A stretch of 32,000 bases of DNA from Candidatus Methanoperedens sp. (GTDB lineage: Archaea; Halobacteriota; Methanosarcinia; Methanosarcinales; Methanoperedenaceae): contig JAPZAR010000022.1 of NCBI GenBank assembly GCA_027460535.1, positions 109,886 to 141,885 of the forward strand, in the 5' to 3' direction. Made by a program: the position numbers and the translations under genes. Shown here one piece after another: positions 3,472 to 31,185 of this stretch; the first letter of the stretch is position 1, and each line of letters begins with the position of its first letter. The notes beneath the pieces are model-generated. The model was not told the DNA's origin, ran no database searches, and saw only the letters and a list, made by a program, of their open reading frames with translations.

Positions 3472-4112
3472 TCTATCTTACCTATATGTTTTGAAGCTTC
3501 TTTATATGCTTTTTCATACGATTCCTCAAGCGCGATCCATACGTCATTATCATTGATTATATTCCACAATATCTCCCTGCGTTTTTTCTGGTCATCTACC
3601 TTCAATTTCAGCAGTTCACGGATTTCGTTTTGGAGCTGCGACATCCGCTCAAATCCGGGAGTTATTACTTTTTCGATCCTCTGCCTGATATACTTTGAAA
3701 GCGCAGGGCTCTGGCCAAGAGTAGATATCCCTATTATGATATCCCCGCGCCTGATCACAGAAGGAACAATGATATCACCTGTATCATCAACCCGGTTTAC
3801 CAGCATGCCCTCCTGCCATGATATTTGGGCAATTTTCTCATTCAAGGCAGCATCGTTCGTCGCCGGGATGACTATGAAAGCATTATCCAGGTAGCGAGCC
3901 GTGTCCTTTTCAACAAGGTTTTCTACCCTCACCAGTTTTATTTTACCCTGCTCAGAAAGCCTGATCAATGAAGGAGTGAATTCACGGCTCACAACTGTTA
4001 CTCTGGCATGATCACAAAAAAGCAATGCCTTGCGTTCACCGACGTTTCCACCTCCAAAAATGATCACTTCTTTTCCCGAAAGGTCAAGCATCAGAGGAAG
4101 AAATTTCTTCAT
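3468..4112 (-). CDS. sirC: Precorrin-2 dehydrogenase / sirohydrochlorin ferrochelatase (SirC / CysG N-terminal-domain type)
   Basis: 214 aa with N-terminal IIFGGGNVGERK Rossmann motif and the family-typical GDIIIGISTLGQSPALSKYIRQRIE. It has 4-nt overlaps with the genes on both sides. Confidence 0.8.
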   Translation of the reverse strand: MKKFLPLMLDLSGKEVIIFGGGNVGERKALLFCDHARVTVVSREFTPSLIRLSEQGKIKLVRVENLVEKDTARYLDNAFIVIPATNDAALNEKIAQISWQEGMLVNRVDDTGDIIVPSVIRRGDIIIGISTLGQSPALSKYIRQRIEKVITPGFERMSQLQNEIRELLKLKVDDQKKRREILWNIINDNDVWIALEESYEKAYKEASKHIGKIE

Positions 4113-4567
4113 AGCCTCACGCCAGTTTTCTTGAACTCCCTTTCACTGAATAGTATGCTGTAATCACTGATCCCCGCTGCAATGGATATCTGCTTTGCGA
4201 CCTTTTCACATTCTTCGCGCGAATAGGCGTGGATCATGGTAAAGAGGTTATATTTCCAACCCGGGAAGCGCGGGCGTTCATAACAATGGGTGACTTCCGG
4301 GAAACCCGCCATTATTGCCCCGACCTCTTCCACTTTTTCGTCAGGAACATTCCATGTGCACATGGCATTTGCTGTTATTCCGACAGCCCTGTGCCCTATT
4401 GAAGCGCCAAAACGCCTGATCACGCCTTCTTTAATAAGTTTGTCAAGTCTTTCCAGAACTTCGTTCTCGGGGATTTCGATCTCCCGCGCTATTTGTTTGA
4501 ACGGAAGAGATACTATTGGTATTCCATCCTGCGTTGATTTCAAGAGCTTTACATCAGTCTGATCCAT
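4109..4567 (-). CDS. Siroheme decarboxylase subunit (AhbA/AhbB, NirD/L/G/H-like Lrp/AsnC fold)
   Basis: 152 aa. N-terminal HTH-like segment (LLKSTQDGIPIVSLPFKQIAREIEIPENEVLERLDKLIKEGVIRRFG) plus C-terminal VTHCYERP...YNLFTMIH. It is the first gene of the operon with sirC and hemA. I cannot tell A from B by eye. Confidence 0.75.
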   Translation of the reverse strand: MDQTDVKLLKSTQDGIPIVSLPFKQIAREIEIPENEVLERLDKLIKEGVIRRFGASIGHRAVGITANAMCTWNVPDEKVEEVGAIMAGFPEVTHCYERPRFPGWKYNLFTMIHAYSREECEKVAKQISIAAGISDYSILFSEREFKKTGVRL

Positions 4568-4782
4568 GTTAACAGATTAATTTATTTCAATTATATGCTT
4601 ATCAATACCTTAATCATGCGCTTATGGAAAGAACACATTGATAAAGATATTCTTACGGAAAAAATCAAGAACATAACTATGATAAATACCGCTATAGAAA
4701 TCCTTAACGAAGTGGTTATGGTTAATCAGAGATGAAATAATCAGAGGCAATATTGATTATCCGGCAGGGCAATAAAAAGGCA

Positions 4783-5352
4783 ATGCTCGATACGACAAAA
4801 GAGTATATCAGGACATTATTAAGACCTCTTGCCAAAAAGATCATTGGGGTAAATCCAAACACTATAACCTTTTTAGGTCTATCATTAAGCCTTTTGTCAG
4901 CAGTCTTCTTTGCAAGGGGCGAAGTTTTGATCGCGGGTATTGTTCTTCTTGCAGGCGGTTTTTTTGATGCTTTCGATGGGGCAGTGGCACGGGAAAATAA
5001 CAGGATAACAAAATACGGGGGGTTCCTGGATTCCGTGTGCGACAGGTTTGCAGATTCCGGAGTTATCATAGGTGCGATGTATGGTGGTCTTGCTGTTTTC
5101 TCCCCTTTCCCTGAGTGGTTCATCGGTACCCTGGCGATCGTTGGCTCCCTGATGGTAAGTTACACCAGAGCGCGCGCGGAGGCTGCGGGTGCCAGCGCTT
5201 CAGTGGGAATAGGAGACAGGCCTGCCAGGGTATCAATAATAATAATCGGGGCATTTCTCGACAAGGTCAGCTGGGCAATTCTTCTCGTTGCCATACTTTC
5301 ATTTATCACGGTCTTCCAGAGAATCGCATACGTTAAAAAAATACTTAAATAA
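4783..5352 (+). CDS. CDP-alcohol phosphatidyltransferase, probably archaetidylinositol-phosphate (AIP) synthase
   Basis: CDP-OH_P_transferase motif GGFFDAFDGAVAR...GGFLDSVCDRFAD. Small polytopic protein in the neighbourhood of myo-inositol-1-phosphate synthase. The track ORF starts at a TTG (4753). I prefer the ATG at 4783 (MLDTTKEY...). Confidence 0.8.
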   Translation: MLDTTKEYIRTLLRPLAKKIIGVNPNTITFLGLSLSLLSAVFFARGEVLIAGIVLLAGGFFDAFDGAVARENNRITKYGGFLDSVCDRFADSGVIIGAMYGGLAVFSPFPEWFIGTLAIVGSLMVSYTRARAEAAGASASVGIGDRPARVSIIIIGAFLDKVSWAILLVAILSFITVFQRIAYVKKILK

Positions 5353-5373
5353 CAACTTTTAAGTCAGATAAAG
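5180..5373 (+). repeat. Direct repeat copy 1, equal to the native 3' end plus stop codon of the AIP synthase gene
   Basis: Aligns by eye with 6266-6460. I count 12 substitutions in the first ~135 bp, then a perfectly identical final ~57 bp (ccagagaatcgcatacgttaaaaaaatacttaaataacaacttttaagtcagataaa) that spans the stop codon. Confidence 0.9.
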
Positions 5374-5551
5374 CTAAAATAATAACTTTTAAGCACGTTG
5401 ATATTCTAACGCTACTTCGGATCCAAACCTTATAGATTTTTATCTACTTTTTTTATGAAAATAGTTGAGATATTTAAAAATGATTGTATAATAACATATC
5501 ATTAAAATGGGGGTAAAGTGTAAGTAATCCTATGTTTATAGAGGTATCTCT

Positions 5552-5818
5552 ATGCAATTTGGAGCTGTTCTGAAAAAGAAGGCTGAAATATTGGCTCTTA
5601 TCTCTTTATCCGTAATAATGGATGTTATCCCAATTATTCTAATTATGGCGGGAATATGGATTTTGAAATATTTCTCGAAATTTTTTGGTTTTGAAGAAGC
5701 CCCTTTCATCATGATATTAACAACCTTTTCAGAGATGTTTATGATAATTCTTTATATAATACTTGCTCTTGTCAGTATTTACAGCATCTATAAGTTATTT
5801 AAAGAAGGAGAACTATAA
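5552..5818 (+). CDS. Small hydrophobic membrane protein (about 3 TM), unknown family
   Basis: 88-aa ORF with a GAGGT about 8 nt upstream of the ATG and clear TM-like hydrophobic blocks. It lies in an AT-rich insert. Confidence 0.5.
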   Translation: MQFGAVLKKKAEILALISLSVIMDVIPIILIMAGIWILKYFSKFFGFEEAPFIMILTTFSEMFMIILYIILALVSIYSIYKLFKEGEL

Positions 5819-5827
5819 ATTCTATAT

Positions 5828-6196
5828 ATGGTTTCTATTAAGACTATGTCTGGAAAAGAAATTATCAAGAGCTATTTTCTAGGTATAGGGTATCTTTTCA
5901 TGCTGACTATGGTAGGTGTATTAGTTGTTACAATTTACAATTCTGTTTCCCCCATCGATATAAATTCTGTTAAATCAGTACAGACAGTTGCGCTTATTTT
6001 TACTACGGTTCTTAGCATAGACACGATACTTCTAATTTTTAATAAACCCACTCCCACTCTTATAATAACACTGATACTAATCTCACCAATATTGGTGATA
6101 TACAAACTTATTAAGAGCACGGATCTTATCCAGATTAACCGATACACTCCTGCAAAGATTAAAAAATATGTACCGCCAAAGGTTATCAGTGGATAA
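5828..6196 (+). CDS. Small hydrophobic membrane protein (about 3 TM), unknown family
   Basis: 122-aa ORF starting 9 nt after the previous stop, with TM-like blocks and the same AT-rich composition. Confidence 0.5.
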   Translation: MVSIKTMSGKEIIKSYFLGIGYLFMLTMVGVLVVTIYNSVSPIDINSVKSVQTVALIFTTVLSIDTILLIFNKPTPTLIITLILISPILVIYKLIKSTDLIQINRYTPAKIKKYVPPKVISG

Positions 6197-6265
6197 ATAA
6201 TAATATTCTTTGCAGCGGCAAGAAAGTCTGAACATACGATATGATGTTCGTCTGAGTCGTGTTAT

Positions 6266-6460
6266 AGGCTACGGGTGCCAGCGCTGCAATGGGAATAGGA
6301 GACAGGCCTGTCAGGGTATCAATAATAATAATCGGCGCATTTCTCAACATGGTCAGCTGGGCAATTCTTCTCGTTGCTGTCCTTTCATTTATTACGGTAT
6401 TCCAGAGAATCGCATACGTTAAAAAAATACTTAAATAACAACTTTTAAGTCAGATAAAAG
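6266..6460 (+). repeat. Direct repeat copy 2 (displaced duplicate of the AIP synthase 3' end)
   Basis: See copy 1. The offset is 1086-1087 bp. Confidence 0.9.
6268..6438 (+). pseudogene. Orphan C-terminal 56-codon fragment homologous to the AIP synthase tail
   Basis: In the gene's own frame copy 2 reads ATGASAAMGIGDRPVRVSIIIIGAFLNMVSWAILLVAVLSFITVFQRIAYVKKILK*. An in-frame TAG sits immediately upstream (6265-6267). The track ORFs 5115..5336 and 6210..6422 are off-frame readings of the same repeat. Confidence 0.7.
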
Positions 6461-6482
6461 TTATCACTGGAAGGGTATTAAC

Positions 6483-7547
6483 ATGGCTGAGATTAGAATT
6501 GCACTAGCAGGTGTAGGTAATTGCGCTTCATCTTTGATACAGGGACTGAATTACTATAGGGATGTCAAAAAATCAGACGTACTTGTTCCTGGACTGATGC
6601 ATAATTCCCTGGGAGGATATCTTATCTCGGACATAAAACCTGTTGCAGCATTTGATGTTGATAAGAGGAAGGTAGATACGGACCTATCCGAGGCTATTTT
6701 TTCAGAACCTAATTGTACAAAAAAGTTCTCCGATGTAACCGGGATGGATGTTGCGGTGATGAAAGGTCAGGTTCTGGACGGTGTGGCACCGCATATGAAA
6801 GATTATTTCCTTGTGGATGACAAACAAAAACCAGTAGACGTTGCATCGGTTTTGAAAAAAACAAAAGCCGATATATTGATAAATTACCTTCCGGTAGGTT
6901 CCGAAGAGGCGGTCAAATGGTATGCTTCGCAGGCACTTGAGGCAGGATGCGCTTTCATAAACTGCATCCCGGTATTCATTGCTTCGGATAAGCAGTGGGC
7001 GGAAAAATTCAAGAGAGCGAAACTCCCTGTGATAGGCGACGACATAAAAAGCCTCGTAGGAGCAACGATCGTGCACAGGACATTGACGCAGATGATACTT
7101 GACCGCGGAGCGAGAATAGACAGCACTTACCAGTTGAATATCGGGGGTAATACCGATTTCAGGAACATGACGGACCAGTCCAGGCTTAAATCCAAGAAGA
7201 TCTCCAAGACAGAATCAGTGGCTTCGCAGATACCCTATGATGCCTACGTTTATGCAGGCCCCAACGGCTGCATTGACTGCCTTAACGATAACAAGGTATG
7301 TCACCTGAAGATCGATTTCAGGCTCTTTGGAGATGTCCCGGCTTACATCGATCTGAAACTTTCAGTTGAAGACAGCCCGAACAGTGCCGGCGTTGTGGTG
7401 GATGCCATCCGCGTTGCGAAAATCGCACTTGATAGAAAGATCGGCGGACCGGTAATACCAGCATCAGCATATTTCATGAAGCACCCTCCGCAGCAGATGC
7501 GAGAGGGAGAGGCGCGCCAGGAACTGGAAGAGTTCATCAAAGGCTGA
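6483..7547 (+). CDS. ino1: myo-Inositol-1-phosphate (inositol-3-phosphate) synthase
   Basis: 354 aa. Contains IALAGVGNCASSLIQGLNYY, VPGLMH, LPVGSEEA, IPVFIASD, VIGDDIKSLVGATIVHRTL and QLNIGGNTDF...SKKISKT. This matches the prokaryotic Ino1 family closely. Confidence 0.92.
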   Translation: MAEIRIALAGVGNCASSLIQGLNYYRDVKKSDVLVPGLMHNSLGGYLISDIKPVAAFDVDKRKVDTDLSEAIFSEPNCTKKFSDVTGMDVAVMKGQVLDGVAPHMKDYFLVDDKQKPVDVASVLKKTKADILINYLPVGSEEAVKWYASQALEAGCAFINCIPVFIASDKQWAEKFKRAKLPVIGDDIKSLVGATIVHRTLTQMILDRGARIDSTYQLNIGGNTDFRNMTDQSRLKSKKISKTESVASQIPYDAYVYAGPNGCIDCLNDNKVCHLKIDFRLFGDVPAYIDLKLSVEDSPNSAGVVVDAIRVAKIALDRKIGGPVIPASAYFMKHPPQQMREGEARQELEEFIKG

Positions 7548-16120: not shown

Positions 16121-16230
16121 TATTCTACGGATTATCTTTGGAAGTTAATAACCTTTATGTACATATTGAAAATGCTTAAATACAAGAATTCATACAGTGC
16201 TTTATACAGTTATTTTAAGCGGGACATAAA

Positions 16231-16728
16231 ATGATAGCTACTGAGCACCTAAAGGATGATAAAGTTTGTGATGATTGGTTAAACAGCCTGAAACCTTCCA
16301 CCGCAGCTACCTACATGTATGGTCTGCTCAAGTATTGTGAATATACGGGCAAAACGCCTTCCTTCTTAATCAATGAGGCGAGGGAAGATTTCATAAATAG
16401 GGTTCCCCCATGGGAATTGAGATATGTCAAACAAATCGAGGGGCTTGTATCCTCCTTTGACGGGAGTATGGCGAACTGGACGAAAATCGGTATTATAAAG
16501 GCTGTCAAGAATTTCTATAAATTCAATAAAATTCCTGCAATGGGACTGAATTATAGTAGAATTCCCATGATGGCGACCGAAAAATATCTGGATACTCCTG
16601 TGCTGAAAATCGAGGATGTTCGCAGGGCAGTTCAGATATGCGGGATTAAGGTTGAAGGGGATAACAATTGGCTAATAATCCAGAATGCAAGTATAAATCC
16701 AGAGTCCGGAAAGAATGGTGCTCAGTAA
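16231..16728 (+). pseudogene. Tyrosine recombinase/integrase stub: N-terminal SAM-like core-binding domain only, catalytic domain missing
   Basis: 165 aa. WLNSLKPSTAATYMYGLLKYCEYTGKTPSFLINEA...IKAVKNFYKFN resembles phage-integrase N-terminal domains. No R..HxxR..Y catalytic region follows, and I saw none elsewhere in the window. Confidence 0.5.
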
Positions 16729-16737
16729 TTTTTTAAT

Positions 16738-17200
16738 TTAAATCCATTTATCTATTTTCAACACTTCCCCCGACGACCCTATATCCATCAATTCTTCCAT
16801 AATGAAGAAATTACCCTGTAATCCGCCACAATGAATACATGTATTTGCAATTACTTCTTGTTGCAATGTTTGGCTATATATTCGTTTGATGTGTGGGTAT
16901 AGTTCCATTAATTTCTTATCCAGAAGTGGCAAACTCCCAATATGATGACTTACTTCACAATCGAAATCGTAAGTGATATGTGGAGTAATCTCCGCACATT
17001 TCCAGCATTTTGTATTCCATTTGTATATTGGTAGCAATTAAATGAGACATCCACCTGTTTTTGCTCAAGCCGATTGATTTAATGCTATATGGCGCATTTT
17101 CTCCAATCCATATTACCAATGCTTGCCTCTGGTGTTGTTCCCAAGCCCTGACAGAACCCTTGGCTCTCAGTTCCAGAGAAAAATAATATACCGGCCTCAT
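16738..17200 (-). pseudogene. Frame-disrupted Cys-rich (zinc-ribbon-like) protein, unknown family
   Basis: Two overlapping minus-strand ORFs in different frames (16955..17200 and 16738..17037). The distal part carries CWKC...C and CIHCGG pairs. Confidence 0.3.
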
Positions 17201-17351
17201 CTATTCTTTTCATTTTCCCAGAGTCGGCGATGATACGGCGATGATACATTCCAGCTCGAAGATTACATCTAATCCCTTTCTACTCAGTTTTTTCTTTTTC
17301 AAGATATTCTTTTATAGCTTCGCAAACCAAACATGTTATAGAAAGTAAATT

Positions 17352-17546
17352 ATGAGCGACAAAGGACAAACATCTTCAAAACACCAGAAATCAACTGGAG
17401 AAAAGAAGAAACAGAAAAGTGGATGGATTTCAAGGAGTTCTGGTTCTGGAAAGAAAGAACAAAAAGATACAAGGATTGTATATGAAATAAGACCATATGA
17501 AACATACGAGGAATATTTGGCTTCGTTCGAAACTCCAGAAGAATAA
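17352..17546 (+). CDS. Small Lys/Ser-rich hypothetical protein
   Basis: 64-aa ATG ORF. No recognisable family. Confidence 0.3.
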   Translation: MSDKGQTSSKHQKSTGEKKKQKSGWISRSSGSGKKEQKDTRIVYEIRPYETYEEYLASFETPEE

Positions 17547-17746
17547 TATTTTTAACTTTTATATAATTATGATAAAATGGGCGCTTTTCAGTGGGTCGGG
17601 ATAGTTGGATATGTCTTGCCCAATTATTAATCGTATAGACCCTTTGTGTCCACCGCAGCGTCGGTACCGGAGCTCGGCAGGTATTTAGAAGAAACCGGGG
17701 ATGCAGGTTAAGTCGTGTTCCTTAACTGATGCCCCAATGACTGCAC

Positions 17747-18376
17747 TTATGGAGAAATTATTTTCTGTTTAAAGTAGAGTGCTAATAACATCATTGACCC
17801 CGAAGCTGTTATCATCCAAGGTGAACCCAAAAGCAATAAAGCAATGGAAAAAGTCGGATAAAAATATACAAGCGCAATCAAAGGAGTAATCAGTGCGTTA
17901 GCTAAAAAAAATCGTCTTGTCCACAGTTCAAGCCCTTTCTTTTCAAACACTGGCACTGCAAATAATGTTGCCAAGCCCATGAAAATATACCCTAATGCAT
18001 CAATGTCCCAGAAAAGAGAATGTGGTGTTTGGTCAAGTATGCGAACCTCATCGAAAGCTCCTCGAAGAGTCATTGGGATTACAGTCGCCAATTGAACAAT
18101 ATAATTCAAAGTAACATACAATGCATACATAACGGTAAAAAGAAGGGCTGCGTGAGTCCAAATTTTCATATCGTCAGATACTGAATAGTGTAGCGCAAGC
18201 ATGGCAAGGATAAATGGTATCGGGATTAAAAGAGAAAATCCATATATAAGAATTCCATCCAAAGGAAATTTAAAATAACCAACAAGTTGTAGAATTTGGG
18301 CAACATCAAATCCAACACTTGCTATAAAGGCTATGAGTGCCGAGTAAAAACCTAATTTTATGGTACTATTATTCAT
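17747..18376 (-). CDS. Polytopic membrane protein (about 6 TM), unknown family
   Basis: 209-aa ORF with regularly spaced hydrophobic helices. Confidence 0.55.
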   Translation of the reverse strand: MNNSTIKLGFYSALIAFIASVGFDVAQILQLVGYFKFPLDGILIYGFSLLIPIPFILAMLALHYSVSDDMKIWTHAALLFTVMYALYVTLNYIVQLATVIPMTLRGAFDEVRILDQTPHSLFWDIDALGYIFMGLATLFAVPVFEKKGLELWTRRFFLANALITPLIALVYFYPTFSIALLLLGSPWMITASGSMMLLALYFKQKIISP

Positions 18377-18682
18377 AATTATAAAGTGCTATTAACTTAT
18401 TTATATTTCTTATCTTTCAAGAATTCAATATTTTAATCGAGTTACCCAATAGAGATTTCTATGAATTGGGCGGGAATTACCCATACTAAAAATCTATCTA
18501 ATTTAAGGTATTTAAACATGCCTGTATTGTGCAAAAACACCCGGTAAAAAAAGGTTATTAAGCAAAAGATTTACGTACCTTTATGTAATTAAATATACTT
18601 TTCCAATCCCTGAAATAGACCCTCATCCTGCGATGTTTAACAACCCTTTTCATTCTACAATATCCTAACAGAATCGTAAAAA

Positions 18683-18892
18683 TTAGCTTTTAATATAGTT
18701 TATAATAAAAAAACCACCAAGTACTCCCAAATAAAAAGTTAAATATATATATAGAATCATATTTATAATACTTATTGGGACATCCATGAGTAGGGTAACT
18801 AAAAGGGTAATTATTCCAAAGATTACAGTAATAAACGATACTTTTATTATGAAATTCTTTCCGTTAACAATCCTTTTAGCCACGTTTACCAA
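18683..18892 (-). CDS. Small membrane protein (2 TM), hypothetical
   Basis: 69-aa ORF with two hydrophobic helices, in a very AT-rich context. Confidence 0.3.
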   Translation of the reverse strand: MVNVAKRIVNGKNFIIKVSFITVIFGIITLLVTLLMDVPISIINMILYIYLTFYLGVLGGFFIINYIKS

Positions 18893-19066
18893 CTCATAGC
18901 CTAATAAGCATAAAAAATATGCTTAATTTCGCAGACGGCTTGAAGATGACAAAGTGCCGACTAATGCAGAGGATGACCGTTCCAGAGAACGGTTGGGGAG
19001 TTTTAATTATTTTCAACAATATTCTTTACTCCCGTTCTCAATCTGGATTGATATCTATAAGTCAAT

Positions 19067-19354
19067 CTAAATTTTCTTTAGTTTTTCAACGCCTGCTTTC
19101 TTCACATTGGGTTTATTGATCTTTGCAGGCATCCAGGATGGTTTATTTTTAGGTGCAGAAACAAGCACTTTCCATCCTTTAAATATATGGACTTTCTTCG
19201 TTCCTCTTTCCCTCAGCCTTATTTCGGCAGGATTTGATTTTGTTCCTTTGCTGCGGTTGGCTGCTTTCAATGCTGCTTGTCGTGGCTGACTTCCTGAAAA
19301 TACTCCAGTCTCTTTACCGTTCTTTGCTCTTAAAACAAAACTTCTTGTTTCCAT
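19067..19354 (-). CDS. Chromosomal protein MC1 (non-histone archaeal chromatin protein)
   Basis: METRSFVLRAKNGKETGVFSGSQPRQAALKAANRSKGTKSNPAEIRLRERGTKKVHIFKGWKVLVSAPKNKPSWMPAKINKPNVKK is near-collinear with Methanosarcina MC1 as I remember it (..NFVLRDE.GNEHGVFTGKQPRQAALKAANRG.GTK.NPD.IRLRERGTKKVHVFKAWKE.V.APKNRP.WMPEKISKPFVKK). Alternative upstream ATGs exist at 19381 and 19402. Confidence 0.9.
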   Translation of the reverse strand: METRSFVLRAKNGKETGVFSGSQPRQAALKAANRSKGTKSNPAEIRLRERGTKKVHIFKGWKVLVSAPKNKPSWMPAKINKPNVKKAGVEKLKKI

Positions 19355-19490
19355 TATTTTCTTACTTCTTGTTTTCGCCATATTTTCATACCCTGACAAC
19401 ATTCCGTTGCCTTATCATTAATTTATTATTATAATATATAAGTTTTACTAAGATACTGTCGGCTATGCACACTGATTTGTAAATATGCTG

Positions 19491-19797
19491 CTACTGATGC
19501 TCCTGTTTTTTAGCGCCCATAACCAAAGCTTGCTCAACCCACAGCATATCCTTCATTACGAGAACTATCTTATCGCGTAGTGGATAACTCTCTATCGAGT
19601 TCTTCAGAAGCTCGCCATATTTCTGATTTTCTCTCCCCTGCCGTTGCCATTTTGAACCTGTAACTTGCCTTTTCATAGTATGGTTCAAGTTCCCTGAATA
19701 GTTCAGGGTCATCGAAGAAGTGCTTGAAATAGTAGGCACCGCTGATTTTGAATATGTTTATTCTGGGACGCTTTTCAGTTATATCGAAAGAAAGCAT
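19491..19797 (-). pseudogene. Frame-disrupted hypothetical gene
   Basis: ORFs 19570..19797 and 19491..19739 are in different frames on the same strand with a long overlap. Read jointly they give one ~100-aa product. Confidence 0.3.
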
Positions 19798-19811
19798 GAC
19801 TCACATATTAA

Positions 19812-19976
19812 TTATCGTCTAAAGGTAGTGGTTCTTTTTTCACCTTTTCTCTTACTCCGACAGTCCTTGCACCTAATTGGTTCACTGTATCCCTTCTCTT
19901 CAAAGAACAGTTGCTCACCTTCTGTGAAAATGAAATCTTTGTTACAATCTATGCAATATATTTTTTTATCTCCCAT
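19812..19976 (-). CDS. Small zinc-ribbon protein (CxxC-X~21-CxxC, zf-trcl-like)
   Basis: Below the track's size cut-off. My translation is MGDKKIYCIDCNKDFIFTEGEQLFFEEKGYSEPIRCKDCRSKRKGEKRTTTFRR*. The C..C..F.F...EQ.F....G...P.RC..CR pattern is characteristic of this small family. Confidence 0.6.
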   Translation of the reverse strand: MGDKKIYCIDCNKDFIFTEGEQLFFEEKGYSEPIRCKDCRSKRKGEKRTTTFRR

Positions 19977-20212
19977 ACTTTATCATGCTCCCAATGAAGG
20001 TTATTTCCTATAGCATCTTCAATTTTAACAAACTTAAATCTTTCATTTAGTTTCGGGAACACTTTCACATCCCTTACCTCAACCTTATCCAGTGAGCCTC
20101 CCTCCAATATCTGATGTATTTCTCCAGTTTCGGAACGACCATAAACTCCCATGTGATAGTGAACGCCATCACTCAACACGGCATCCCTGTTTTCCACACA
20201 TCCGAGATGCAT
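19949..20212 (-). CDS. Hypothetical 87-aa protein (weak ASCH/PUA-like flavour)
   Basis: ATG ORF. The segment EIHQILEGGSLDKVEVRD is faintly ASCH-like. It overlaps the N-terminus of the opposite-strand nuclease-like ORF, so one of the two N-termini, or this ORF itself, may not be real. Confidence 0.3.
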   Translation of the reverse strand: MHLGCVENRDAVLSDGVHYHMGVYGRSETGEIHQILEGGSLDKVEVRDVKVFPKLNERFKFVKIEDAIGNNLHWEHDKVWEIKKYIA

Positions 20213-20600
20213 CTCAAGCCCTTCATCTGTCGGGAAAGTGTCTGCAATCTAGCTGACATTATTGCAGTTTATAAACAATCTGAGCGGTTCTATATTGTGG
20301 GAATCGAGATCAAGGAATGGGATAAACGTGTAAATCCAAAAATAGCGATAGAATATCTGGAAATATACAGGCATTCGTGTGAATACTTCTATCTGGCAGC
20401 GAAAAATCTCTCAGAGTACCCTTGAATTGAAAGACATAGGACTTTTTGATTTGACAATGGTGAAGGTAATCAAGAATGCTGAATATTTGTTTCCTGATGT
20501 GGATTTCAGGGCGAATATGATGAACAGAATAAAGAATAACTTCAAGGTGCTGACCAATGCAGTAGATGACCCGTTTCAGAGGACGATAGGCGAGTTTTAG
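20114..20600 (+). pseudogene. PD-(D/E)xK nuclease-fold protein (MmcB/DUF1052-like), frame-broken
   Basis: LADIIAV (D) ... IVGIEIKEW (ExK) ... YRHSCEYFYLAA. The frame then ends (..KNLSEYP*) and continues in another frame (..LELKDIGLFDLTMVKVIKN...). An A5 run at 20402-20406 lies in the overlap. Confidence 0.45.
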
Positions 20601-20767
20601 ATTTTTATAACGCATGGTTGCTAAAAAAATAAGAAGTGAATGATTTGATTTTATCTTAAGACCTGACAACTATCCTCGCCCAAATCACTTGACTTCCCCT
20701 CTCCCCGTGTACTGGCTGAATTCCCACTGCTGCCTTTTGATGCCCTCAAGCGCACCTATCCGCATCC

Positions 20768-24110: not shown

Positions 24111-24209
24111 GGCCCTTTCTCTGTTTTCTCCATATCGAATATTCACCCCCAATGAAGCAATCTCAATTATATGTTAGAATTTTTTGCTATAAATACTTGT
24201 CTGGGATTG
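24111..24209 (-). repeat. Promoter/leader module, copy A (upstream of the DHFR-family gene)
   Basis: Near-identical to 29341-29433 apart from a ~9-nt indel, a 2-nt indel and a few substitutions. On the minus strand it contains aagtaTTTATAgcaaaaa (TATA-like; plus-strand coordinates 24188-24193), about 115 nt upstream of the ATG. Confidence 0.8.
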
Positions 24210-24368
24210 GGCTCTGTCAAGTCTGCGGTTGTTAATATTATATAAATCATCATATCGTTAGTATTTGCCTTTGAAAAGAGCGCTATCCTTTCGGCTGACG
24301 AAGACGTACCCCTTGAGCCAAAACTTTTATCCAAATAAAAACTTAACATTATTGTTTGAGTGTGAGCA

Positions 24369-25565
24369 ATGGTAACCGCTGACAAACCCCGGGCAATAAT
24401 GTCTGCAAGAATGCTCTGGCTTGATTGGGTCAGAGTTCTTGCCATGGGCATGATTTTTTTGTTTCATAGTAGCAGGCCTTTCGCCCCTCCTTCATGGCAT
24501 ATTATGAACCAGACTCTTGACTTGGGGTTTACTCTGTTCGACATCTTCGTTTCTGGTTGGATCATGCCTTTATTCTTCGCGGTTTCAGGTATCGCAGTCT
24601 ACTTTTCTTTAGCAAAACGTAGTACCTCCCAATTCGTAGGCGACAGATTCATGAGACTCATGATTCCCTTCCTTTTCGTCGGCTTGCTCGTTATCCTGTC
24701 CGTAAACGTTTACTATGATGCAGTATTTCATCGCTATTTCACCGGAGATTTCCTCAGTTTTTACCTTGGGCCGTACTTCACGAAATATTTCCCCTTCGAC
24801 CTCAACTTTTCGCCCACTTATTTCGCAAACTCAAACCAGGGTATATACCTTTGGTATCTTTTCTGGCTCTTCGTCTTCTCTCTGGCCACATTTCACTTAT
24901 TCAAATGGCTCGCAGAAGAGCGAAACCGCAACAGACTCTCGAAACTATACTCTGTCTGCAACACGCGCGGGGGCATTTTACTGCTCGGGATCCCTCTGAT
25001 CATTGTGAACATAGCTGCGGTGCCCCCATACTTTATCTTTCCCAGCGGATATGGAGGCTGGAAGCTTCCCGCATACCTCGTATTATTCATTACAGCTTAT
25101 GTGATGGCTTCCAGCCCTCAATTCGAAGAGTCTATAGAGAAAAACAGGGTACCCGCGCTCTTTCTTGGGATCATCACCAGCCTCTTAGTATTTGCTTTGG
25201 CGACGATAGTTCTGTCTGATCCATCTGCGATGGAACGCTACTATGTTCCAGTTTCTATCGTGTGGGCGCTGAACGGATGGTGCTGGGTAACGGCGATACT
25301 TGGCTTCGGGCGCAAGTATCTCTCCTTCGACCACAAATACCTGAAGGTCTCAAATGAACTCGTTCTGCCGTTCTATGTTCTTCATCAGTCCGTAATTGTT
25401 GCAATCGCCTTCTATGTCATCGGCTTGGATTTGATCGTATTTGAAAAGTATTTCCTCATAGTGCTCGCATCGTTTTCTATCATAGTTGCCCTGCTCTATC
25501 CGATTAGCAGGATCAATTTGCTCAGGTTCCTGTTTGGAATGAGGATGAAGAAGCGGCCCCCATGA
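24369..25565 (+). CDS. Acyltransferase family 3 membrane protein
   Basis: 398 aa, polytopic. N-terminal LWLDWVRVLAMGMIFLFHSSRPF is typical of Acyltransf_3. The start could also be 24399 or 24411. Confidence 0.8.
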   Translation: MVTADKPRAIMSARMLWLDWVRVLAMGMIFLFHSSRPFAPPSWHIMNQTLDLGFTLFDIFVSGWIMPLFFAVSGIAVYFSLAKRSTSQFVGDRFMRLMIPFLFVGLLVILSVNVYYDAVFHRYFTGDFLSFYLGPYFTKYFPFDLNFSPTYFANSNQGIYLWYLFWLFVFSLATFHLFKWLAEERNRNRLSKLYSVCNTRGGILLLGIPLIIVNIAAVPPYFIFPSGYGGWKLPAYLVLFITAYVMASSPQFEESIEKNRVPALFLGIITSLLVFALATIVLSDPSAMERYYVPVSIVWALNGWCWVTAILGFGRKYLSFDHKYLKVSNELVLPFYVLHQSVIVAIAFYVIGLDLIVFEKYFLIVLASFSIIVALLYPISRINLLRFLFGMRMKKRPP

Positions 25566-25674
25566 GAGAAAGCACCGACTCAGGACAAATCTCAATCTGC
25601 GATTGATCCTTCGGTTAACTTCAAATTAGGATATTATAGAAGAATGAATAAGATTTACGACGAATGTAAAATTT

Positions 25675-26166
25675 ATGAAAAAATACAACAAACAAGATCA
25701 GAGATTATTGGCAACCTGGGCTGCGGACTGCGCCGAACGAGTACTTCCATTTTTTGAGAAGGCATATCCGAAAGACGACCGACCCCGCAAAGCCATCGAA
25801 GCATGCCGAACATGGGTTCGCACAGGGGTATTCAAGATGGCTGATATACGCGGAGCTTCTCTTGCAGCTCATGCCGCCGCCCGCGAAGCGAAAGAAAATA
25901 AAACGGCTTGTTTTGCCGCGCGTGCCGCAGGCCAAGCGGTGGCAACTGTACATGTTCCCCAACACGCCCTCGGCGGCGCTTACTATGCTCTTAAAGCCGT
26001 TGCGGTAGCTGACCTTGCTAATGCCGATGTTAAAATTGCCAAAGAACGCAATTGGCAATCACGGCGTCTTCCAAAAAATCTAAGGCAAGAAATTTTAAAT
26101 AAAATAATAATTCAAAAACGTGACGATGGAATTTTTATCAAAATACAAAAAGGCAAGGATTTTTAA
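25675..26166 (+). CDS. Alpha-helical protein of the Imm-5-like 'putative immunity protein' family (often mislabelled exonuclease SbcC)
   Basis: 163 aa. LATWAADCAERVLPFFEKAYPKDDRPRKAIEACRTWVRTG......AAHAAAREA...AARAAGQAVATVHVPQHALGGAYYALKAV matches my memory of that family's pattern. Confidence 0.5.
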   Translation: MKKYNKQDQRLLATWAADCAERVLPFFEKAYPKDDRPRKAIEACRTWVRTGVFKMADIRGASLAAHAAAREAKENKTACFAARAAGQAVATVHVPQHALGGAYYALKAVAVADLANADVKIAKERNWQSRRLPKNLRQEILNKIIIQKRDDGIFIKIQKGKDF

Positions 26167-26347
26167 TAATTAAGGGATTAGTACGTAAGCAGAGACTTAA
26201 GGAGTCGTATTTTGCTTAACCAATAATAAAAATTAAACGCAAAGTTAGATATTCTCGAAGAACTTATTCAATTCAGGGACTTGGCAATCTCGTTCAAAAT
26301 CAAAAAGGTTTTGAGCAGGCTTGGGCCTATCAATTGAGGTGGGAAAA

Positions 26348-26701
26348 ATGGTAATTACTCAAATAGCAACTGTAGCTGTCATGGTATCCGATGAAAACAA
26401 AGCAAAAGAATGGTATAAGAAAAAATTGAAATTCGAAGTTATGAGCGACGAACCGCACTGGATTGTGGTCGGTCCGAAAGGCTCTTCTACAGGATTGCAT
26501 CTCTGTCCTGATGCGGAACTTGAACCGGGAAACCAGGGGATTGTACTAAAAGCGGACAGCATAGAAAAGACATGCAAAGAATTGAAAGATAATGGCATTG
26601 AATTCGTGCGTGAACTCTCTCCATCAGAGTGGGATGAAAATATTAGATACGCAGTGTTCAAAGATCCGGATGGAAATGAGTTTTCGCTTATGCCAAAGTG
26701 A
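26348..26701 (+). CDS. VOC/glyoxalase-bleomycin resistance family protein
   Basis: MVITQIATVAVMVSDENKAKEWYKKKLKFEV...FKDPDGNEFSL. GAGGTG lies upstream of the ATG at 26348. Confidence 0.8.
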   Translation: MVITQIATVAVMVSDENKAKEWYKKKLKFEVMSDEPHWIVVGPKGSSTGLHLCPDAELEPGNQGIVLKADSIEKTCKELKDNGIEFVRELSPSEWDENIRYAVFKDPDGNEFSLMPK

Positions 26702-26829
26702 ATCCAATTCTATCGCAGGAGTGATGATGAAGCTTTATAAAGTCAAAACTTTCAGGACTCTATATTACAAATTGATAATTGTCAGCCTTAAATACAGCGC
26801 CATGTAATACTTCCCTGGAGGGTTACTAT

Positions 26830-27168
26830 ATGCATACAATCACAGACGATTTCATGAGGCAGATGCTCCTCAAGACGAAGAATTACTGTATCGTTATTTT
26901 GAGAGCCGGGCCGAAAAGTAAGGAACCTGGCGCAGAAAAGATCATATGGGAACATGGCAGGAGGAACTTCGCGCTCCGTGCGGATGGAGTGTTGCCGATT
27001 GTTTGCCCCGTCATTGACGGAAGCGATATAAGAGGCGTTGGCATATTCGATACCACTGTTGAAGAAACAAAAAGGATAATGGATGAAGATCCGGGAGTAA
27101 AAGCACAAATCTTTGTCTACGAACTTCATGCGTGTCGGAGCTTCCCGGGAAGTTGCTTACCGAAATGA
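26830..27168 (+). CDS. YciI-like (YCII-related) protein
   Basis: IVILRAGPKSKEPGAEKIIWEHGRRNFALRADGVLPIVCPV......GVGIFDTTVEETKRIMDEDPGVKAQIFVYELH. GGAGGG lies upstream of the ATG at 26830. Confidence 0.65.
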   Translation: MHTITDDFMRQMLLKTKNYCIVILRAGPKSKEPGAEKIIWEHGRRNFALRADGVLPIVCPVIDGSDIRGVGIFDTTVEETKRIMDEDPGVKAQIFVYELHACRSFPGSCLPK

Positions 27169-27584
27169 TACTTAAATTCATTACTCTGAATATAACAGGG
27201 ATTCATAAACTATATTCGACAATGCGCTTCAGACTATTTCTGACTGGTATGACGTTTTATTGACACCTAATTTTCTTATCAGCCCTACAGCTTTCACAAT
27301 TATAAGTTAACTCCCAATATATCTTTGAGAACTTGTGAGGCCTTTTTGACATATTCATCTGATGGTTCAGTGAGCTTTCCTTCTCCGACACATTCAGGGA
27401 CTATAAAATTCTTATAAAATTTCCCTATCTAAACTACCAAATACTTAAGCAAAATCTCTTCCAAAACGAAGAACTCTTTTCCACTCATCTCTTTCAGTGT
27501 ATTCCTCATTGTAGTATGCATTCAACAGAACCCACATTTTGAAGAACATATCGCTTCCTCAGCCTGATTCCACACGATGGATTT

Positions 27585-28640
27585 TCAGCAGGGCTGTGCC
27601 TCGCCTTCGGGGCCCGTCGGGGTTGGCATCTTGACGACTTCGAAATCTGTGGTTTTCACATTCTTAAGGAGTGCAAGCTCCTGGTCATTCCAGCGGGAGT
27701 CGGGGGCGCCAGACAGGAACATCGCGCCGCCGTTATCAGCGATAATCATCCCGTATTTTTTCAAAGCGCGCAGTATGACCTGCTCATTTTCAGGAAACTC
27801 GCTTATGTTAAAGCTCGCCTTGAGGCGGAAGCGGGCTCCCATGGGCGGGTATTTTGCATCCGTCAGAGTACTCGCGTAGTGCCTTGCGGGGCATACGAAC
27901 GCTTTGCGGGTTTTGGGAACGGTAAAGCGGAGAGCGTGCTTGATTTCCTTCCGGCCTACCACCTCATCGTAGCGCACCAGGCCTGGGAATATCGGGAGAC
28001 CTGCCGCGTCGGCCGAGGTGAAGCGCGCCGGCCTCAAGGCGTTTGAAGTAAGATTGAAGACTGCGCCAGACCCTGCCTTCCACGAACCGTCGCTGTTAGG
28101 GTAGCCCGCATAAAGCTCGTAAAGCGTCTTGGCGTCACGGTCGATAACGAGGATATGTCTGTCCCCGGAGCTTTGTGGCCCGCCCTCAATCGGCGCATCC
28201 GGAGGGATGGGGTAGGGGACTTTGTCGCTTTCTTCCGCATAATCGAATGAGACTTTGACTTTGGGCTGGCTTCCGGAAACGACGATATAGGGGATGCCGT
28301 TTGGCGCCCCGTTCCAGACGGTTCCGAAATCAGGGTGGAGAGGACGAATTCCGATTGTTGAAATTATGAGGTTTGAATCGGGGTCGACAGGAAGGGCCGA
28401 GATGTCCTCATTCCACGGATTGTCCGGTGGAAAAGACAAGAAACCTTGCATGTCTGCGCCCGGGCCGAGATCCGGAACACCGACCTGAGCGCTTCCTTCT
28501 GGTATGGGGGCTGAAGTCGGAGTCGTACCTATATTTGTGGAAGCTGGAGCAGTGCTCATTGGAGGTGGAATTGAGATACAGCCGGATAAAAAGAATGCGG
28601 TGACGAGAAACACAACGAAGATCTTCACTTTCCCCATCAT
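27585..28640 (-). CDS. Secreted lipoprotein of unknown function (conserved hypothetical)
   Basis: Signal peptide plus lipobox (MMGKVKIFVVFLVTAFFLSGC), a Thr/Pro-rich linker, then a ~300-aa globular domain. It is visibly GC-richer than its neighbours. Start taken at 28640, although the ORF is open to 28718. Confidence 0.7.
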   Translation of the reverse strand: MMGKVKIFVVFLVTAFFLSGCISIPPPMSTAPASTNIGTTPTSAPIPEGSAQVGVPDLGPGADMQGFLSFPPDNPWNEDISALPVDPDSNLIISTIGIRPLHPDFGTVWNGAPNGIPYIVVSGSQPKVKVSFDYAEESDKVPYPIPPDAPIEGGPQSSGDRHILVIDRDAKTLYELYAGYPNSDGSWKAGSGAVFNLTSNALRPARFTSADAAGLPIFPGLVRYDEVVGRKEIKHALRFTVPKTRKAFVCPARHYASTLTDAKYPPMGARFRLKASFNISEFPENEQVILRALKKYGMIIADNGGAMFLSGAPDSRWNDQELALLKNVKTTDFEVVKMPTPTGPEGEAQPC

Positions 28641-29039
28641 GCTACCAGCGGAATTATTTGACTCATCGCCATTATATTCACATTTTCGTCCTGCCTCTTT
28701 TTCATTCCCCTTGTTCATTTCTTGACCCTTCTTTATGGAAGGTATATTTGCTTGGCAATAAATCTAATGCCAGGAAAACAGTATAAAAATAGAAATTAAT
28801 TATTCTTATATGTTTAAATATGTAGGCCATTTTCATAAAGGGAATATTTAAAAATCCATAAATGCCCGGATTGCCATCATTGAAAAAGGATTGACCCAAT
28901 TGTCCATAAAAAACTGCGTAATATGTTATCCGATTTCGAAAGTGTTAAGCAGCATTTCTTTACATGAAGGTCAAGATTTTTCAAACCTTTTCCATTTAAA
29001 TGTGTCTCCACTTCAAGATAATCTTTCAGATAGCTATTG

Positions 29040-29136
29040 ATGCCCTCGTTACAGTTTCTGCCGAATAAAGAATAACGGTTGCCCGTCCTCCCTATTCTAA
29101 GAAGAACCGTACGTGAAAGTTCCCTCCATACGGCTC
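29040..29136 (-). mobile_element. Group II intron 3' fragment: ribozyme domain V (29104-29136) plus a probable degenerate domain VI
   Basis: The minus strand reads GAGCCGUAUGGAGGGAACUUUCACGUACGGUUC. Both 9-nt arms (GAGCCGUAU / GUACGGUUC), the AGC triad and the AC bulge match the canonical domain V (GAGCCGUAUGCGAUGAAAGUCGCACGUACGGUUC). A stem AGAAUAG...UUAUUCU follows. No RT/maturase ORF is present in the window. Confidence 0.7.
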
Positions 29137-29340
29137 AAGCATTTTTTTACACTTTAAATCGGGCAGCAGACCTGAAAGAAGCGTTTTGAATATGGGAATT
29201 TTCATAGCTTTTCCATTTTTACGGTTGATACTTCATTATACCGAAAACAGTCAGTTGTGTGATCATTCACCATTCCTACCGCCTGCATCAGGGCTTCGAG
29301 CTTCCTGAGCAAGCCGGGGGACAACTCTATCATTGATGCG

Positions 29341-29433
29341 GGGCTCTTTTTCTGTTTTCTCCATATCCCCCCAATGAAGCAGAATCTCAATTATATGTTA
29401 GAAATTTTTGCTATAAATACTTGTCTGGGATTG
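29341..29433 (-). repeat. Promoter/leader module, copy B
   Basis: See copy A. The TATA-like TTTATA lies on the minus strand at plus-strand coordinates 29412-29417. Downstream on the minus strand are only a short ORF and the intron relic. Confidence 0.8.
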
Positions 29434-30755: not shown

Positions 30756-31185
30756 AAACATGAAGAATATCCAGCCGCTGTGGGACAGAAAAATTGATGT
30801 TCCGAGGAATAGAGACCGGGTATTATTAAAAAAGATTAGCGTAATAATGATTTCATTTTTTTAGCGTAGGAAACTATAAAGCATACCTCAAACGTGCATC
30901 ATTTAAAAACGGGACTGTAAAAAAGTTTGGTGTTGGGGGCTATCATGAAATATTTGAAAATAAGAAACCGCAGATAAACGCCGATGAACGCAGATTTATG
31001 ATAGCGTATTTGCGATATATAATATTGTAACACCAAAAGATTTTACACCCACTTAAAAACGAAAAACTTATACCCTATAATGTATAATTATTTCGAAGGG
31101 AGCGAGAAAACTGAATGTCTTAGAATGAAATATTTATAGAAGTACTTGATTTGTTATTTTGATTGTTACAATGGAGGAAGATATT

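Follow-up and report, generated by a model that had tools for sequence, protein, structure and literature searches.

How did some 0.9 kb of AT-rich DNA come to lie between two inositol-lipid genes of Candidatus Methanoperedens sp. while leaving both of them intact? Methanoperedens are anaerobic methane oxidisers, and their mobile elements are still poorly charted. The DNA analysed here (the window) is a stretch of 32,000 nucleotides, positions 109,886 to 141,885 of the forward strand of contig JAPZAR010000022.1 (assembly GCA_027460535.1), and all coordinates refer to it. Within it, the gene for archaetidylinositol-phosphate synthase (AIPS) is parted from ino1, the gene for myo-inositol-1-phosphate synthase, by an insert bracketed by two copies of the AIPS 3' end. 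A first-pass annotation, made from the sequence alone, took this arrangement for the scar of site-specific integration by an element carrying a replacement gene tail, with a perfect core of about 57 bp at the end of the repeat marking the crossover. We find that DNA related to mobile elements has been inserted at the 3' end of AIPS and that one of the two tails was imported with it, probably through a single crossover of the Campbell type, but the argument from the core does not stand.

Structure of the repeat and the insert

Exact ungapped alignment (offset 1086) defines a direct repeat of 193 bp and 94% identity, the two copies of which lie exactly at the two junctions of the insert. Copy 1 (5180–5372, + strand), which is attL-like, comprises the working 3' end of AIPS and the next 20 nt, and copy 2 (6266–6458, + strand), which is attR-like, carries a dead AIPS tail fragment. 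The duplication described in the first-pass annotation is therefore real, although it had been given as 194–195 bp, with coordinates one or two bases off. The inserted DNA (5373–6265, + strand) is 893 bp long with a GC content of 30.9%, compared with 46–47% in the flanking AIPS and ino1 genes, and agrees with the AT-rich cassette of about 0.9 kb reported there. Copy 2 in frame still reads as the tail of the AIPS protein, with an in-frame TAG (6265–6267) ahead of it, as had also been noted, and a 49-residue ORF is called at 6289–6438. With the copy-2 peptide as a protein query, the sole match was this same ORF of the window; when metagenomes were scanned with the tail peptide, low-complexity patterns swamped the output and just three distant loci were returned.

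The copies differ at 12 positions (5185, 5200, 5203, 5225, 5250, 5260, 5264, 5292, 5293, 5295, 5307 and 5313), all of them within the first 134 bp, and the last 59 bp (5314–5372, identical to 6400–6458) are free of mismatches; the skew that had been counted by eye, with a perfect stretch put at about 57 bp, is thus confirmed by exact alignment. This 59-bp block spans the last 12 codons of AIPS, the TAA stop codon (5350–5352) and the next 20 nt. Just inside the left edge of the insert there is, as previously observed, an imperfect echo of the block (5374–5393, + strand), identical at 18 of 20 positions to the segment around the stop codon at 5344–5363, which is TATA-like in content; it could be a second promoter-like box or the vestige of an older attachment site. 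An attachment site linked to a tRNA gene was ruled out, as tRNA and Rfam scans of the window gave no match.

The site is empty in relatives

We compared the locus with those of nine relatives: six GTDB species of Methanoperedenaceae (L006–L011) and three closer ones (L095, L096 and L097). All nine have an empty site, with ino1 following AIPS directly after a spacer of 44–55 bp and with the inserted DNA missing, so that the search for empty sites suggested by the first-pass annotation was answered in every genome examined. In L006–L011, 46–55 bp separate the AIPS stop from the ino1 start within a shared gene order (hemA-sirC-ahb-AIPS-ino1-pmbA-radical SAM), whereas in L095 (95% amino acid identity) and in L097 and L096 (89%) the spacer is 44 bp and collinear with 6439–6482 of the window. 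The bases that follow copy 2 (6459–6482) are likewise collinear with the empty-site relatives. Relative to these sites the window contains an insertion, and it is one that preserved both neighbours: AIPS retains its full reading frame by way of copy 1, and ino1 its conserved upstream region by way of copy 2.

The two repeat copies are different alleles

The nature of the 12 differences shows that the copies did not arise by fresh duplication. At seven of the sites (5200, 5260, 5264, 5292, 5295, 5307 and 5313) copy 1 has the state of L095, and copy 2 that of L097 and/or L096; three further differences (5185, 5203 and 5293), all nonsynonymous, are unique to copy 2, and the remaining two (5225 and 5250) to copy 1. 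The chance that a decaying fresh duplicate would match the states of other lineages at seven sites is at most 5 × 10−4 (P ≤ 5 × 10−4). Between copy 1 and L095 there are 4 differences in 193 positions, and the two group together at eight informative sites. The two copies are thus distinct, non-sister alleles, which we call type A (copy 1) and type B (copy 2); the type B tail is common among relatives (L097, L096, P0129 and P0132). Because the repeat copies share their polymorphisms with other lineages, one of them must have been imported together with the insert, which agrees with the outcome predicted for a circle that bears a homologous gene tail and integrates by a single crossover.

The inserted module and its relatives

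The cargo of the insert is a module of two small genes on the + strand, preceded by a conserved leader (5510–5551) at which homology to other module-bearing loci begins. ORF88 (5552–5818) encodes a small membrane protein with about two hydrophobic spans and is 63–76% identical in amino acid sequence to the copies in L086, L091, L098, L099 and L100; ORF122 (5828–6196) encodes another, with about three spans, and is 58–80% identical to its homologues. The dN/dS ratios against homologues (0.16–0.34 for ORF88 and 0.14–0.20 for ORF122) show both genes to be under purifying selection. Neither protein has a match in Pfam, NCBIfam, PHROG or PADLOC, and the ORF122 family is rare, with seven clusters at the first search and 27 clusters among 1.84 billion representatives in a profile search, some of them from Methanoculleus and other Methanomicrobiales.

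At the DNA level the module (5510–6199, from 42 nt upstream of ORF88 to the ORF122 stop) is 78–82% identical to loci L086, L091, L098 and L099 and 66% identical to L100, while its flanks are unrelated in all five. In L100 the gene pair adjoins a gene for a 398-residue tyrosine recombinase (Phage_integrase), in a chromosomal island that also contains a rolling-circle-type Rep gene (PF23343) and a second integrase gene; the L086 copy is on a contig of 20 kb that, among mostly unknown genes, encodes a family A DNA polymerase and a HerA/FtsK-like ATPase and also has MazE-like genes. To judge from their gene content, these two contexts are clearly mobile-element-like, and the cargo is related to such elements. 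A scan of IMG/VR with ORF122 found no further member, and BLASTN of the insert against PLSDB and INPHARED gave no match. The first-pass annotation had proposed a search of the genome for other copies of the cargo; related copies of the module exist in other contigs, and neither an even spread of mismatches nor an arrangement common to all relatives with no further copy of the cargo, either of which it had held to speak against integration, was found. A rare and uncharacterised pair of small membrane proteins is now linked to elements with integrase and Rep genes.

At a guess, the cargo proteins might act in exclusion or in some other membrane role on behalf of the element. Their genes may be transcribed from the 59-bp block copy at 5314–5372 together with the echo, both of which point into ORF88 and ORF122 on the same strand. 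Some of the 110–122-residue membrane proteins of the ORF122 family in Methanoculleus (P0162 and P0166) are called 'site-specific recombinase' by JGI, almost certainly an annotation error, perhaps taken over from a neighbouring gene.

When the surroundings of the L100 island were searched for att repeats, just scattered palindromes of about 50 nt came up. The unit (TTTCTGTCC...GGACAGAAAA) occurs in five copies (3713–3762, 5323–5373, 5790–5840, 5933–5983 and 9570–9619 of L100), dispersed through the integrase/Rep island that bears the ORF88–ORF124 pair, and could represent terminators or a miniature repeat family. Separately, a 36-nt motif (AAACCGCAGATAAACGC.GAT.AACGCAGATTT) is common to the window (30962–30997), where it lies in AT-rich intergenic DNA, and to L100 (12817–12852), where it lies downstream of an MNT/HepT toxin–antitoxin pair; it looks like a short dispersed repeat.

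Proposed integration and position of the crossover

The arrangement is probably the product of a Campbell-type integration, by a single crossover, of DNA from a mobile element with an AIPS tail of its own. A circular DNA bearing the 3' end of AIPS (about 170 nt) from another Methanoperedens lineage would have undergone one recombination with the chromosomal AIPS 3' end, thereby placing 893 bp of its DNA between the two genes, with one copy of the AIPS tail on each side. We infer the circular intermediate, the catalyst, be it an integrase or host homologous recombination, and the position of the crossover. What remains today might be the decayed stump of a larger element, or else a non-autonomous mini-element of 1,086 bp served by an integrase in trans.

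The alleles constrain where the exchange took place. As copy 1 is type A throughout 5200–5313 and copy 2 type B, the exchange must lie either to the left of about 5200 or to the right of 5313. We lean slightly, and tentatively, towards the first position, at about 5180–5199, which would make copy 1 the element-borne replacement tail and copy 2 the displaced native tail, as with prophage e14 in the icd gene of Escherichia coli (see below). We do so because the anomalous type A allele coincides with the repeat interval: sites at which copy 1 and L095 share one state and L097 and L096 another number eight in the 134-bp tail, compared with six in 1,143 bp of flanks (P = 8 × 10−7). The site pattern of the tail is 8:0:0. 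We do so also because the divergence of copy 2 from L097, 5.2%, equals the level of the flanks (4.8–6.0%).

Several points weigh against this account. The numbers of mismatches to L095, 4 for copy 1 and 12 for copy 2, both fit the 7.7 or so expected from the flanks, and divergence counts therefore do not settle which copy is native. Recombination among close Methanoperedens strains is evidently frequent at the AIPS locus: within the AIPS body the site patterns disagree (4:5:2), and L095 pairs with L097 over the upstream flank but with the window over the tail. This blurs arguments based on alleles. A crossover at 5180–5199 further requires that the L095 lineage first acquired a type A tail and later shed the element, and that the element was reduced to 893 bp without loss of either junction. 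The repeat, at 193 bp, is far longer than the att sites reported in archaea. The junction pieces (5373–5509 and 6200–6265) were unmatched in the fetched loci, the rest of the window, PLSDB and INPHARED, and sequence resembling the AIPS tail or the core, a candidate attP, was absent from the fetched parts of the module-bearing contigs. Finally, no circular junction was found in the fetched loci, and no integrase either: a Pfam scan of 28 ORFs of the window, including all those of at least 125 residues not nested in a longer ORF, gave no match to an integrase or recombinase in the insert or elsewhere in the 32 kb. The first-pass annotation had rightly seen no integrase inside the cassette, and the insert lacks the gene expected of an autonomous integrated element.

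The 1,086-bp unit of AIPS tail and module might also be a living, non-autonomous integrative mini-element mobilised in trans by the integrases of resident plasmids or proviruses, which we regard as quite unlikely. If it were so, the last 57 codons of AIPS would pass from lineage to lineage as the unit is repeatedly integrated and lost, and this would explain the A and B classes of tail among close relatives.

The 59-bp block

The perfect identity of the last 59 bp of the repeat had been read as the crossover core (attL/attR). However, in each of the relatives no part of the locus is more conserved than this block. Between empty-site orthologues it shows 0–1 differences, compared with 14–23 (10–17%) in the preceding 134 bp, and its centre, AAATAACAA(C/A)TTTTAA, is invariant across the family despite the variable coding sequence around it. 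The AIPS stop and about 20 nt after it (AAATAACAA(C/A)TTTTAAGT) are invariant, or nearly so, in 6425–6482 of the window and in the same spacer of L006–L011 and L095–L097. This deep conservation, the TATA-like content and the position about 35–55 nt upstream of the ino1 ATG point to a probable ino1 promoter within the block, which would overlap the 3' end of AIPS. The copy-2 instance of the block (6400–6458, + strand) would then be the native upstream region retained by ino1, and its copy-1 instance (5314–5372, + strand) a probable duplicate of that promoter which now faces the cargo. The clustering of mismatches is significant under a uniform null (P = 0.0125) but not when the local conservation among orthologues is taken as the null (P = 0.67), so that a perfect block needs no crossover to explain it. 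The reading of the perfect 57–59 bp as a crossover core is accordingly unsupported, the block being identical or one nucleotide off in relatives with an empty site.

A crossover by an integrase inside the block may still be considered in its own right, with copy 1 wholly native and the first 134 bp of copy 2 an element-carried AIPS fragment, acquired, for example, by aberrant excision from a type B host, an event that could also yield a mini-circle of 1.1 kb. One such excision would account for how small the insert is, why it has no integrase and why gene sequence lies upstream of the core; capture of a type B fragment is plausible, that type being common among relatives, and the three changes unique to copy 2 are all nonsynonymous. 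The block also contains a palindrome across the stop codon, ACTTAAA-N8-TTTAAGT (7+8+7, at 5343–5364 and 6429–6450), of which 0.01 are expected per window, and which could serve a recombinase; together with the echo it resembles a recombinase core site. The palindrome was, however, noticed post hoc and is part of the conserved spacer of the host, and conservation alone accounts for the perfection of the block. A crossover there also leaves unexplained the anomalous allele that copy 1 shares with L095 and that is confined to the repeat interval, and there is no benefit to an element in bringing along gene sequence from upstream of where it crosses over. We therefore consider it the less probable course, though a possible one. 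The two ideas joined in the first-pass annotation, a core at the right and a replacement tail, are incompatible: a crossover in the right-hand core leaves the working tail native and the element's copy dead, whereas a replacement tail needs the crossover at about 5180–5199. Of that proposal, the foreign insertion related to mobile elements at the 3' end of AIPS and the import of one copy stand, while the argument from the core falls.

Other explanations

An origin in situ, without any element-borne tail, would have the repeat arise by template switching or as an old local duplication that later diverged, with the relatives losing the insert by recombination between the repeats. Direct repeats around 0.9 kb do delete easily, so that finding a close relative with an empty site is not enough to date the insertion, and the three unique nonsynonymous changes of copy 2 are those of a decaying pseudogene. 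On the other hand, seven of the 12 differences match alleles segregating in other lineages, the sites are empty in nine of nine relatives across the family with collinear spacers of 44–55 bp, and the AT-rich cargo recurs in several contexts, two of them clearly mobile-element-like. A 193-bp target duplication fits no transposition mechanism known to us, and neither terminal inverted repeats nor a transposase nor Cas1 was detected at the insert by repeat search and protein-domain scans. An origin of this kind is improbable.

That the arrangement is an assembly artefact, in which the assembler joined a free 1.1-kb circle, or sequence of a second strain, to an empty-site chromosome by way of the 59-bp block they share, is hardly credible, because it is reproduced in independent assemblies. 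The junctions recur in Logan unitigs (L003 and L004), in ENA contigs (L001 and L002) and in an NCBI metagenome-assembled genome (MAG), the 141,885-bp contig of which carries the same proteins. The k = 31 Logan unitigs, from other runs, cover 5343–6429 with both junctions; they break inside the 59-bp block and would fit integrated and circular forms alike. MEGAHIT contigs at k = 141, however, traverse the block on each side, L002/L005 (50.8 kb) matches the window with 100% identity, and L001, which comes from a different sample, joins the AIPS body, copy 1 and the insert. Chimeric joins do occur in such assemblies, as the end of L001 indicates. This contig (ENA ERZ27247945 k141_242726) matches 3926–5518 exactly and then continues for 72 unrelated bases that, in translation, look like an internal part of a class II aldolase/AraD-type gene. 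The break, at 5518/5519, falls 8 nt into the conserved module leader and is probably a chimeric contig end, the alternative being a different junction.

Flanking genes and other features of the window

The intact AIPS gene occupies 4783–5352 on the + strand, with its ATG at 4783 and an upstream in-frame TTG (4753) that is used in some gene calls. Its product matches PF01066 (CDP-alcohol phosphatidyltransferase; 68 bits) and, as its best NCBIfam model, NF040950 with 169.6 bits, just under the cut-off of 180 bits; it is 67–72% identical in amino acid sequence to the Methanoperedens orthologues in L006–L011, 95% to P0008 and 89% to P0009. The ino1 gene, also intact (6483–7547, + strand), matches PF01658 (103.6 bits) and TIGR03450 (436.9 bits, below that model's cut-off of 638 bits), with 86–90% amino acid identity to the L006–L011 orthologues. 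On these profile matches and identities, both gene assignments hold.

The only other long repeat of this kind in the window is an unrelated pair of about 100 bp (24111–24209 and 29342–29433), made up of a 51-nt stretch at 98% and a 26-nt stretch at 92% identity. The left copy lies immediately upstream of a RibD_C gene, and the 5.2-kb segment inside the pair, of very uneven GC content (35–60%), contains genes for an acyltransferase, an Imm5-like immunity protein, a glyoxalase and a GC-rich putative secreted protein of 377 residues without a Pfam match; 24111–29433 may be another island bounded by long repeats. Elsewhere, 16200–20700 is a long AT-rich stretch (28–40% GC) with several ORFs lacking Pfam matches around a gene for an MC1 chromatin protein (19067–19402).

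Comparison with known systems

Transposons, insertion sequences and casposons resemble the present case in having direct repeats that flank inserted DNA, but a 193-bp repeat with copies of different alleles is not something that staggered-cut repair can produce. These classes, with their target-site duplications, were ruled out by the absence of inverted repeats, transposase and Cas1 at the insert and by the allelic nature of the repeat copies. As for integron-type cassettes, which go with an attC site and an IntI/attI platform, there is no cassette array, and no integrase was seen among the scanned ORFs of the window. Lambda dgal-type transducing genomes, which arise by aberrant excision, and the integrase-less satellites and cassettes mobilised in trans offer a comparison in general terms: they too are small elements that carry host DNA from beside the attachment site and have no recombinase of their own. 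For the AIPS insert we came across neither a helper nor a packaging signal, and neither a circular form nor a second integrated copy.

Among archaea, integrated elements have been described in Thaumarchaeota, where 14 of 68 lie in the 3'-distal parts of protein-coding genes with att repeats of 8–69 bp (PMC6563490). Elements such as NitEve-E2 share with the AIPS insert an entry at the 3' end of a gene, a reconstituted reading frame and verification against the empty sites of relatives, and many are 'cryptic integrated elements' with little recognisable content (PMC6563490). They differ in that their reported repeats of 8–69 bp are near-perfect and an integrase is normally kept, whereas the AIPS repeat is 193 bp long at 94% identity.

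The closest analogue is the cryptic prophage e14 (and phage 21) in the icd gene of E. coli, with its icdC pseudogene. In both cases the insertion is at the 3' end of an essential gene of metabolism, the intact gene continues into element DNA, a pseudogene of the homologous C-terminal fragment lies at the far end beside native downstream DNA, and the two copies differ by scattered, mostly conservative substitutions. Excision or deletion of e14 swaps the icd tail alleles (PMC13626634, citing Hill et al. 1989), and tail swapping of this type by excision would explain the type A tail at the empty site of L095. Unlike the AIPS insert, with its 893 bp, two membrane-protein genes and no recombinase, e14 extends over 15 kb and has its own integrase and excision functions. 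The host here is moreover archaeal, the assignment of the element-borne copy is tentative, and the repeat includes the upstream region of the next gene.

Set beside these cases, the locus is distinctive in its long imperfect repeat, its tiny integrase-less cargo and the neighbour's probable promoter inside the repeat; it is otherwise a tidy but ordinary integration scar, with no new mechanism. Its value is as a clean and checkable case in which mobile DNA has entered the chromosome of an archaeon at the 3' end of an essential gene and left that gene and its neighbour's promoter unbroken, and it suggests that the traffic of such elements can exchange the tail of an inositol-lipid synthase between strains, much as e14 does for icd in E. 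coli.

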